A DNA stretch of 64,000 nucleotides from Clostridia bacterium (GTDB lineage Bacteria > Bacillota > Clostridia > Christensenellales > Borkfalkiaceae), in assembly GCA_017501885.1 (NCBI GenBank), contig JAFVWA010000224.1:21226-85225 (forward strand). Reading direction: 5' to 3'. A program made the position numbers and the translations under genes. This document shows, in pieces, positions 32,373 through 64,000 of this stretch (positions within the stretch are counted from its first letter, which is position 1; each line of letters opens with the position of its first letter). The notes under the pieces were generated by a model. It saw only the letters and a list, made by a program, of their open reading frames with translations. It was not told where the DNA came from and did no database searches.

Positions 32373-32378
32373 AATTTG

Positions 32379-32408
32379 ATTTTAACACCAACTAATATAA
32401 ATAGTCAA
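32379..32408 (-). promoter_or_regulatory. near-consensus sigma-A promoter (extended -10) for the candidate sRNA
   Basis: Minus strand: TTGACT (32408-32403), 18 nt spacer, TGtTAAAAT (-10 at 32384-32379). An AT-rich UP-like tract lies upstream. Confidence 0.6.
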
Positions 32409-32544
32409 TTATTAAAAAAATAAAAATAATTTTCTTATAATTATAAAAAAATAGCGTTGTCATTTTAATAAAATTAAAAATTTTGCTTGTAATTTTTATA
32501 AAAATAAAGTATCATATAAACACAAGGTATTTAGGAGAATACGT

Positions 32545-32991
32545 ATGAAGTATAATAATATTGACGAAACAGATTTAAAAATTTTAAGACTTTTGCAAAA
32601 CGACGCAAGAATGCCCGTCAAAGCTATTGCCGAACAGATTTTTGCTTCCGCACCTACCGTGTCGGCAAGAATTGAAAGCCTTACCCAAAAGGGAATAATC
32701 AAAGGGTATTATACCGAGATAGACGTTTCTGCTATTGATAACGTCATTAAAAGTTATATCGATATAGAAGTTTCTCCCGAAAGAAAGGAAGAACTTTACG
32801 ACTTTTTACGTTCATCTCCGCAAGTGGTGGAAGCAAATCGCGTTACGGGGGAATATTCATTACTAATAAAGGTGATAGTTAAAAACACCTTGGAAATGGA
32901 TAAGTTTATAAACGCTTTGCAAAGATATGGCAGAACTAAAACTCAAATAGTATTCTCGTCTATTATAGAACGCCGTGGTGTAAGCATATAA
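32545..32991 (+). CDS. Lrp/AsnC-family transcriptional regulator
   Basis: DETDLKILRLLQNDARMPVKAIAEQI HTH plus a C-terminal RAM domain. Confidence 0.9.
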   Translation: MKYNNIDETDLKILRLLQNDARMPVKAIAEQIFASAPTVSARIESLTQKGIIKGYYTEIDVSAIDNVIKSYIDIEVSPERKEELYDFLRSSPQVVEANRVTGEYSLLIKVIVKNTLEMDKFINALQRYGRTKTQIVFSSIIERRGVSI

Positions 32992-36343: not shown

Positions 36344-37054
36344 TTAAGCCGTTTTGAGAACGGTTAATGAAGCACCTGACAAGGTTAAAGCTTCTGCTGA
36401 CGTGTTGTAAAGTGATAAACTTCCGCCGTCAGTAGTTGTTAATAGTATAGTTTTACTTGAAGAATCAAGTCCGCCTGTCGTTCCGTCTATTGTAATCGTT
36501 TCGTTTGCGACGGGGGCTCCGTCAAGATATAAACTAACCGACAACGCGTCCGTTGGCACAGAGCCGTTTACAAAATAGGAAACAAGGTAAGTTCCTGCTT
36601 CGGGCAAAGTTACCGCTCCGCCTGCTACGCTTAAAGTCGTTCCCGTGGTCGCTGCAAACTGAGTTAGGGGTATAATGGTGTCCGCCGTTACTGTGACTGT
36701 GTTTACGCCTGCATAAATAGCATCGTTAGTTCCCGCGGGACCTTGCGGACCGGTAGCACCTGTTGCACCCGTAGCACCAACAGGGCTGACAGGACCTTGT
36801 GGACCAACTGCACCCGTAGCGCCTGTTGCACCAACGGGACCGACAGGCCCGATTGGACCTTGTGGGCCGGTAGCACCCGTAGCACCTGTTGCGCCCGTTG
36901 CACCCGTAGGACCTTGCGGGCCTATGGGGCCTTGTGGACCTTGTGGGCCACGCGCGCCCGACGGACCTGATGGACCTTGCGGACCGCGTATATAACGAAT
37001 ATTAGAACAATTGTTGCAACAATTTCTTCCGTTGCAACCGAATAAACTGCACAT
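36344..37054 (-). CDS. collagen-like (G-X-Y)n protein with Cys-rich N-terminus and globular C-terminal domain (BclA-like exosporium/surface glycoprotein type)
   Basis: About 28 G-X-Y triplets (GPQ, GPS, GAT and others) at aa 24-109, then a 127-aa Thr/Val/Ser-rich beta-type domain. GGAGG SD at 37070-37066. Confidence 0.85.
36728..36985 (-). repeat. collagen triplet-repeat coding region (GAT/GPQ units)
   Basis: In-frame 9-bp and 3-bp periodicity. One triplet has Ser instead of Gly (GPV-SPV-GAT). Confidence 0.85.
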
Positions 37055-62076: not shown

Positions 62077-62088
62077 AAAGGAGAAATT

Positions 62089-64000
62089 ATGAAAAAAAAC
62101 GCACTTAAAGTTGCACTTCCCATACCTTTCGTTGAAAAGGAAGAAAACCTTAATGAGTTTATACAAAATGCCATAAGGCAAGCAAAAAGATACCACGCAA
62201 GCGAAGTTACTGCATTTTTGCCTAGTAAAGGATTTCGTGCAGTTGGTTACCCTACGAACGAATATATTACGCATTGTGCAAAAATGTTCAAAACGGCAAG
62301 AGAAGAGCTTGCAAAGCACGGCATAGATTTAGCAGGCTTTTATACCCTTACAGTAAAGTCTGGTAGGCGTGAAGATTTAGAGCCTATTATCCGTGCAGAT
62401 GGTAGCGAAGCGCCATTTTCTTCTTGTGTGTTAGGCGAAAACTTTAAAAAAGCGTTGTCGCAAACGATAGCACTTTTCGTAAGTATCGCAAAGCCTAAAT
62501 ACTTGCTTTTAGAAGACGATTTTTCCCTTTCGGCATCAAGTATAAAGGGGTGTTTCTGTCCCTAGCACTTAAAGGAATTTAGCAAGAGAGTTGGCAAGGA
62601 ATACGATAGAGAAACACTTTTGAAATTGTTTGAAAGCAACACGAAAGAAGGCTTAAAGCTTCTTAAAAAGTGGCGTGAATTTATGGGCGATAGCCTTGTT
62701 GAACTAGCAAAGGCTATAAGGCGAGAAGTTGATATTCTCTCCCCAGAAATTCCTATGGGTTGCAACCAAACGGGTGCAGACGAACTTGATGGATATTCTA
62801 TGCCCAAGATTGCAAAAGCACTTGCAGGGGGTAGGCATAAGCCTATTTGTAGACCAAGAGGCACTTTCTACTGTGGTGGGGATAGCAAAGATTTGCCTGC
62901 CGTTATGTTTAACGCAATGAAAGTTGCCCAAACTCATAAGGGCAAAATCACCCTACTTCACGAAAGCGATGCTTATCCACATAACCGCTTCTTTACTGGT
63001 GCACGTCAATTAGACGTTATTACAAGCGTAGCCGTAACTTATGGCGAAGATGGTGTGTTGCTCTTTGCCGAAGGCTTTGGTGGTGGAATAGCGGGAGAGG
63101 AAAGTTCTTACGGGAAGAACTTCGCAAAACAATATAATCGCCTTAACACGGTGCGAAAATTAGTCAAAAATTGCTCGTTAGATGGTGTTGAAATTGGTTA
63201 CGATTGGTTTTATAATAAACTTAAAAACGGCAATCCATTGTGGGCAAGACCTTTGGGCTTGTTTGGAATACCCACAACATCTAAAAAATCCAAAGTGGCT
63301 TTTTGGGATAGCGCACAAGCCCGTAGCTCAAGCGATAAGACTATAAAAGAATATCTCTCTAAGGTATTGTTCCTTGACGGAGATGCTGCTAAAATTTTGC
63401 AAGAGCGTGGCTATGGCGAATACCTTGGCGTAACGCTTGGCGAATGCGTAGACAAGCCACCTCTAATTTACGATTTGAGCGTTAAAGAAGTAATCTCTGC
63501 GGAATTTACACTATCTGGCACAGAAGAAAAAATGCCTTGTGGACACGCTTTTTGCCCGTCTGGAAGTGGCAAAACGTATCTACTAACCGTTGATAATAGC
63601 GATTGTAAGGTTATTTCATCTTATTTTGATAGGTTAGGAAATAAAATTTGCGACACTTCGAGTATTTTTGAAAACTCGCTTGGTGGAAAGGTAATCGTGT
63701 TTGCGCAAACGCTTTTTGGAAACCTATCGCAATCAATTTATAATTATCCACGCCAACGCCTTATTCAAAGGCTTATTCAACTTACGGCAGATGAGTTTGT
63801 AACTTGTGGGGGAGAGCCTAACCTTTGGACCATAGTTAATAAACCTAATAAGTCAAAATCTTATAAGCGTTTAATTACCGTAAGTAATTTGGGCATTGAC
63901 GGAATTGAAAAGTTTTCGTTACATATTCCAAAATCGCTTGGTAAAGTAAACGGCGTTCAAATTTTGGCTGAAAACGGACGCTTCAAAAAAGCAAAATGCA
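62089..64000 (+). pseudogene. large uncharacterised gene (at least 637 codons, runs off the window) interrupted by one in-frame TAG at 62563-62565
   Basis: AAAGGAG SD and ATG at 62089. I checked codon by codon that the same frame stays open from 62566 to 64000 (478 codons). The downstream part is not listed in the ORF track. A Cys/His motif GCFCP-TAG-HLKEF spans the stop. Confidence 0.55.

Follow-up and report, generated by a model that had tools for sequence, protein, structure and literature searches.

The last gene of a 64,000-nucleotide stretch of the Clostridia bacterium assembly GCA_017501885.1 (hereafter the window) is interrupted by one in-frame TAG codon. This stop is an ordinary one-base difference that is private to the assembly and reflects either an error or a nonsense allele of very recent origin; the gene is otherwise intact. 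The window corresponds to C220:21226-85225, where C220 is contig JAFVWA010000224.1 (~109 kb), and belongs to a metagenome-assembled genome (MAG) of 2.1 Mb in 264 contigs, 92.5% complete and with 37.5% G+C. The gene encodes a putative glycosidase whose predicted fold resembles that of glycoside hydrolase family 42 (GH42), and we refer to it as the GH42-like gene. Its TAG is a single T-to-A difference (TTG, Leu, to TAG) at window position 62564 that is private to this assembly. Coordinates without a contig name are window positions.

The comparison of alleles at 62564 is based on assembled consensus sequences. The 90% cluster of the best protein match contains a 661-aa product (P0055) that is identical to the product of the window gene, with Leu at codon 159. 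It is encoded on the 160-kb ENA scaffold_60 of SAMN15830010 (L028) and on a Logan contig of SRR12529304 (L029). Relative to the window contig, L028 shows one mismatch in 19,566 bp and L029 one mismatch in 5,702 bp, and in both cases the mismatch is window 62564 (A here, T there). These two are independent assemblies, although the biological sample may be the same. A second MAG of the same species (L030, 97–98% identical) has TTG at the site, and the more distant contigs L011, L012, L013 and L014 (85–89% protein identity) read CCC TTG CAC where the window reads CCC TAG CAC; the sense codon TTG is thus found in all seven contigs compared at the DNA level. The truncated products (158 aa and 484 aa) were found on no contig but the window's own in a collection of 15 billion proteins that includes Logan and ENA. 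In summary, alleles that are otherwise identical have a sense codon that differs from the stop by a single base, and the remaining frame is intact.

The cluster has a second 158-aa member, P0049, which was considered as an independent sighting of the truncation and rejected. Its contig L027 (ENA ERZ28633616 scaffold_71841, 1443 bp) is only 91% identical and follows the gene to about codon 150 before it turns, at positions 1340-1443, into unrelated sequence. The equal length of 158 aa is probably a coincidence or the result of a chimeric contig end.

Structure of the interrupted gene

The gene and its landmarks within the window are as follows.

62077..62083, + strand: Shine-Dalgarno sequence AAAGGAG, read from the sequence, 5 nt upstream of ATG 62089
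62089..62562, + strand: codons 1-158 of the GH42-like gene, with barrel strands 1-4 and the invariant residues Cys113, Glu142-Asp143-Asp144, Gly154, Cys155 and Cys157
62425-62427, + strand: Cys113, candidate fourth ligand, from its invariant column and the hhalign profile alignment
62551..62568, + strand: putative metal-binding motif C155-F-C157-P-[TAG159]-H160, from invariant columns and the hhalign profile alignment
62563..62565, + strand: in-frame TAG, codon 159, in the context GCFCP-TAG-HLKEF; its middle base, 62564, is A
62566..64000, + strand: codons 160-637 of the GH42-like gene, with the invariant residues His160-Leu161 and Glu292 (62962-62964, putative nucleophile)

Inspection of the sequence places the start of the gene at ATG 62089-62091 on the + strand. 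A first-pass annotation of the window had described this ATG with a good Shine-Dalgarno sequence, the TAG at 62563-62565 and a frame that stays open to the window end, all of which matches the sequence: the frame after the TAG is free of stops to 64000, giving 158 + 1 + 478 = 637 codon positions. On the full contig it closes at a TAA located 74 nt beyond the window end, for 661 codons in all. In a listing of open reading frames (ORFs) with open ends, the downstream half appears only as 62620..63999, open at its 3' end, and is overlapped by several short shadow ORFs, in agreement with the same annotation. NCBI annotates two products, P0048 (158 aa) and P0051 (484 aa, start TTG 62620). A scan for promoters and terminators around the gene start gave no signal above shuffled expectation.

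Homologues and selection

Searching 5.8 billion proteins with the joined product yielded 46 full-length, uninterrupted homologues of 641–690 aa with up to 89% identity. Because these homologues and P0055 cover both parts, the interrupted frame represents one gene and not a chance succession of open frames. None of the 46 carries a Pfam domain, and the few that are named are listed as 'hypothetical protein' from Clostridia or Ruminococcaceae MAGs. The first-pass annotation had suggested aligning orthologues at the stop and had considered that they might end at the same place. They do not, as 46 of 46 are single chains. In an alignment of 18 homologues, the TAG column sits within an invariant G-C-x-C-x-x-H-L motif and holds a sense residue in every one of them, Leu in the six closest (57–89% identity) and H, R, C, G, Y, N or K in the more distant ones.

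Purifying selection acts on the gene on both sides of the TAG. The ratio of nonsynonymous to synonymous substitution rates (dN/dS) of the window gene relative to its relatives is 0.12 overall, with 0.13–0.16 upstream of the TAG and 0.11 downstream, and neither a frameshift nor a second stop occurs across the 661 codons. Given a dN/dS of ~0.12 and no other lesion, the stop is therefore either very young or not real.

Use of TAG and decoding machinery

TAG is an ordinary terminator in this genome. Long frames end genome-wide in TAA (676), TAG (78) or TGA (62; 816 frames in total), and the four genes in the window for which termination at TAG had been noted (2226, 17224, 24865 and 35334) all do end in TAG. 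Global reassignment of TAG, which the first-pass annotation had dismissed on the basis of those four genes, is rightly excluded.

The search for pyrrolysine genes proposed at the same time gave no pylT, pylS or pylB in the genome; pylC and pylD were not searched separately. With cut-offs of 178 and 348 bits, the best genomic matches to PylS (TIGR02367) and PylB (TIGR03910) scored 32.3 and 15.8 bits, respectively. ARAGORN detected 36 tRNAs across all 264 contigs of the 92.5% complete MAG, none of them with a CUA anticodon or typed as Pyl. This tRNA set is partial, with none for Trp, His, Ile, Val or Cys.

Further in-frame stops and private differences in the MAG

Using a coarse screen of the genome for all pairs of frames split by one stop, we obtained 104 pairs with TAA, 16 with TAG and 13 with TGA, proportions that mirror stop usage in the genome. 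Most such pairs are ordinary adjacent genes in which the second starts a few codons past the stop. Besides window 62563, three further interruptions are genuine, so that at least four conserved genes are affected.

C187:20108-20110, + strand: TAG in a 333-aa NagB/6-phosphogluconolactonase-like gene, in the context 'FAMDE-TAG-ADQDG'; Trp in 119 of the 119 homologues listed
C48, ~5534-5542, + strand: TGA in the region encoding a DUF5685 domain, with the contig end ~400 bp away; Gly in 119 of 120 homologues
C33, ~3269-3271, + strand: TAA in an Upf1-like superfamily 1 (SF1) helicase gene, separating its AAA_11 half from its AAA_12 half, from the stop screen and the domain halves

At C187:20109 the isogenic ENA scaffold L047 has TGG where the MAG has TAG, with 2 mismatches in 13.2 kb between the two. 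Two codons before the TGA on C48, the MAG encodes Val (GTA) in place of the Gly present in the five closest homologues listed. Assuming GGA as the ancestral codon at both sites, two G-to-T changes would have occurred within 9 nt, which looks like a technical effect (an oxidative or low-coverage artefact). Apart from these conserved genes, C4 has a TGA (~6562-6564, + strand) with long in-frame segments on either side (203 and 284 codons). The encoded protein has no Pfam match and a high content of Asn, Ser and Thr, and may belong to a phage or to the cell surface.

Over ~60 kb compared with isogenic assemblies, the MAG shows six private differences, corresponding to ~1e-4 per base. The two nonsense differences among them (62564 and C187:20109) are sites that had been deliberately sought. 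Two others are missense (window 36787, Gly to Ser; C187:23274, His to Gln) and two are synonymous transitions (window 39322 and C187:21525). At window 36787, the MAG has AGC (Ser) and the isogenic scaffold_60 has GGC (Gly); the change breaks the Gly-X-Y repeat of a collagen-like gene (36344-37054, - strand), and a look-up in the protein collection found the exact Ser-allele protein on record nowhere else. UvrA was found on scaffold_60 only. With the codon usage of this genome, 4.8% of random substitutions create a stop, expected as TAA in 50%, TAG in 27% and TGA in 23% of cases. At a rate of 1e-4, ~9 nonsense sites are predicted per genome, and the coarse screen found 4, with TAA:TAG:TGA at 1:2:1. 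Since counts and stop mix match random substitution, they point to private substitutions that are blind to selection and not to suppression of TAG.

Origin of the stop

Our preferred explanation, to which we give an even chance, is that the A at 62564 is not the allele of the population but stems from an error in base calling or in the consensus, or from a minority variant taken up by the assembler. The TAG would then be one of several private, selection-blind single-base differences of the MAG, it would be read as a normal stop with nothing recoded, and the organism's gene would be one ordinary gene of 661 codons for a cytoplasmic glycosidase with a GH42-like fold. Cells truly carrying the TAG allele, if any, would produce a fragment of 158 residues in which half of the barrel is missing along with the nucleophile Glu292; such a fragment would be inactive. 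A genuine and very recent nonsense mutation that represents the majority allele in the sampled population, i.e., a nascent pseudogene in one clone, is a serious contender that we rate at somewhat below an even chance. Three observations favor an error or minor variant and at the same time speak against such a young allele. At least four conserved genes are stopped, one of them at a Trp found in 119 of 119 homologues, which is many for a lineage only ~1e-4 away from its sister. The TGA on C48 looks technical, as it lies close to a contig end and is preceded, two codons earlier, by another residue at which the MAG departs from its closest homologues (Val for Gly). The truncated products occur in no Logan or ENA assembly. 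However, several considerations weigh against an error or minor variant. Assembly-level data alone do not separate an error, a minor variant and a fixed allele. For a short-read assembly with a contig as long as 109 kb, a consensus error rate of ~1e-4 would be high, and the two synonymous transitions among the six private differences resemble real polymorphism. Very close natural strains are known to carry missense and nonsense mutations that have not yet been purged, and a real young allele accounts for the same data about equally well. The low real rate of difference to the isogenic assemblies, including the two synonymous transitions, is what would be expected between sister clones, and the same strain is present in more than one sample of one study (SAMN15830010 and SAMN15830035). 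Moreover, ~200 clone-specific and little-purged substitutions would include several stops. The gene is probably dispensable, because an intact distant paralogue exists on C137 and the presence of the family in the genus is patchy, both of which would suit a young null allele.

Decoding of the TAG, be it as pyrrolysine, by an amber suppressor tRNA or through programmed or leaky read-through, would allow the full-length enzyme to be made still, and we regard it as very improbable. It could draw on the in-frame TAG in two conserved genes of the MAG (window 62563 and C187:20108), on the C that follows the stop, and on the incompleteness of the MAG and its tRNA set, as a suppressor tRNA could be located on unbinned DNA. 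However, no tRNA with a CUA anticodon was found in the MAG and the matches to PylS and PylB are far under their cut-offs. TAG closes 78 of 816 long frames, lesions with TGA and TAA occur as well, and the share of TAG fits random substitution. The stop is kept in no relative, and at each of the two TAG sites the isogenic strain has a sense codon (TTG for Leu, TGG for Trp), so nothing about it is conserved or programmed. Taken together, the private base, the Leu in relatives, the purifying selection, the lack of Pyl or suppressor machinery and the lesions other than TAG mean that recoding, pyrrolysine and programmed read-through are effectively excluded. Consequently, two of the four options offered in the first-pass annotation survive, a recent nonsense mutation and a sequencing or assembly error, whereas read-through and pyrrolysine are rejected in view of TTG in the isogenic assemblies, sense codons in relatives and the missing pylT, pylS and pylB. 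The specific scenario of an unbinned amber suppressor tRNA that lets both the TAG at the Leu site and the TAG at the invariant Trp of C187 be read through, with both enzymes made at full length, strikes us as extremely improbable; if true, TAG suppression would have arisen naturally, and very recently, in a lineage of gut Clostridia. The idea of two separate genes, in which one protein of 158 aa and another of ~480 aa with its own start represent a natural split or fragments that reassemble into an enzyme, corresponds to the two products annotated by NCBI and yet has next to no chance of being correct. All 46 homologues are single chains of 641–690 aa, the isogenic strain has one uninterrupted gene, the break lies within an invariant motif in the middle of a triosephosphate isomerase (TIM) barrel, and no start codon with a Shine-Dalgarno-like sequence exists within 100 codons after the TAG.

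Independent of whether an error or a young allele underlies the stop, TAG 62563 is not a recoding signal and provides no candidate for pyrrolysine insertion or read-through. Any in-frame stop in this MAG, and any odd single residue such as the Ser for Gly in the collagen-like gene, should be trusted only with read support.

Fold and putative function of the encoded protein

Pfam and NCBIfam searches with both halves and with the joined protein gave nothing at curated cut-offs, only sub-threshold noise (YfiO, MlrC_C). The GH42 model PF02449 (Glyco_hydro_42) did not match the gene product at E values up to 1, and a profile search of the PDB with the family returned no match at E values up to 10. 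The structure of an intact, 89%-identical homologue was modelled with AlphaFold2 (AF2) at high confidence (predicted local distance difference test, pLDDT, 94.7; predicted template modelling score, pTM, 0.92). Foldseek comparison of this model with the PDB gave GH42 enzymes as the top full-length matches (5E9A, 3TTS, 4OIF and 4UZS; E values of 7e-21 to 1e-18, template modelling (TM) scores of 0.60–0.65), i.e., a GH42-type fold over the whole chain, with an identity of only 10–12% to all matches. The hidden Markov model and structure searches suggested in the first-pass annotation thus revealed a GH42-like fold without a match to a family model.

Profile alignment with hhalign against eight GH42 sequences from the same order was weak (E value 8.6e-4, probability 24%). 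It places Cys113 on the first zinc Cys of GH42, C155-x-C157-x-x-H160 on the GH42 motif C-x-C-x-x-C, the TAG on the second variable position of that motif, and Glu292 on the 'ME' nucleophile. In GH42, zinc is bound by Cys113, Cys153, Cys155 and Cys158 and the catalytic residues are Glu148 and Glu305 (PMC8573354). This zinc is described as structural, and the cluster is not universal in GH42 (PMC8573354). The likeness to the GH42 zinc motif that had been pointed out in the first-pass annotation is borne out by the Foldseek ranking and by the alignment of GCFCP[TAG]H on G-x-C-x-C-x-x-C (motif according to PMC8573354), and its remark that the TAG falls on a variable position finds support in the profile alignment. 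Cys113 and C155-x-C157-x-x-H160 are invariant in the family, with His instead of the GH42 Cys at the last ligand position, and a Cys3-His structural metal site is probable. Glu142 and Glu292 are invariant in 47 sequences and are located at strand ends according to the alignment and the AF2 model; in the low-probability hhalign alignment, Glu142 lies 4 columns away from the N-E acid/base of GH42. Visual inspection, without a computed prediction, shows no obvious signal peptide at the N-terminus, which would be in keeping with a cytoplasmic location as in GH42. From fold and conserved residues we infer that the product may be a cytoplasmic retaining glycosidase of clan GH-A. Judged by its sequence, it is not a member of GH42.

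The family of the interrupted gene is uncharacterised, as there is neither a Pfam or NCBIfam model nor a solved relative, and all homologues retrieved are of metagenomic or MAG origin. With the intact allele as the starting point, it is a reasonable target for glycosidase discovery.

Paralogue and gene neighborhood

The intact paralogue is located at C137:4809-6773 (- strand), encodes 642 aa and shares 28% identity with the GH42-like product (hhalign E value 1e-43) as well as the motif G-C-x-C-P-L-H. A close copy of the GH42-like gene is present in only 1 of 24 genomes of the genus. Gene order around it is conserved in relatives, with RNase Y, glycerate kinase, a protein with a beta-lactamase fold and MGS upstream, and, on the full contig, a metallophosphatase, fucI, an AraC regulator and a 685-aa protein without Pfam match downstream. 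The latter (C220:89725-91782, - strand) lies ~4.4 kb downstream, and its synteny with the AraC regulator and fucI is kept in L028 and L030. It was considered as a relative of the GH42-like family or of GH42 and rejected, with hhalign probabilities <8%.

Elsewhere in the window, a hypervariable intergenic region (32374-32655) separates the Wzz genes from an AsnC/Lrp-type regulator. Assemblies that are otherwise identical diverge here, with 74 differences in the Logan contig L042 and, in L043, a 19-bp deletion (32522-32540) and one single-nucleotide polymorphism. This region could be a strain junction or a contig-end artefact.

Comparison with known systems

The encoded protein can be compared with several groups of retaining glycosidases of clan GH-A. 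GH42 beta-galactosidases such as Bca-beta-gal of Bacillus circulans (3TTS), the Rahnella enzyme (5E9A) and Gan42B of Geobacillus (4OIF) are of similar length (~660–690 aa). They differ from the family described here in the fourth ligand, which is Cys in GH42 and His here, and in the acid/base region, which reads N-E-Y in GH42 and L-E-D-D here, with the alignment shifted by 4 residues. An equally good full-length fold match is the GH164 beta-mannosidase Bs164 (6T7G), which forms one group of matches with GH35-type enzymes of GH42-like architecture, i.e., the beta-1,2-glucosyltransferase of Ignavibacterium (7VKW) and the exo-beta-D-glucosaminidase of Pyrococcus (8OUG), at E values of 1e-18 to 1e-16 and TM scores of 0.56–0.62. 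GH164 and GH35-type enzymes have no detectable sequence similarity to the gene product, and the comparison with them covered the shared fold.

With respect to the stop itself, methylamine methyltransferase genes that encode pyrrolysine offer a superficial parallel in their single in-frame TAG within an otherwise open and conserved gene. They differ in that the window TAG is not conserved in homologues, the gene family is unrelated, and pylT, pylS and pylB are lacking here. The closest counterparts are the ordinary point-nonsense pseudogenes and consensus errors of MAGs, in which a one-base stop likewise interrupts a frame that is otherwise intact, amid scattered lesions that are not under selection, and no feature distinguishes the case in the window from them.

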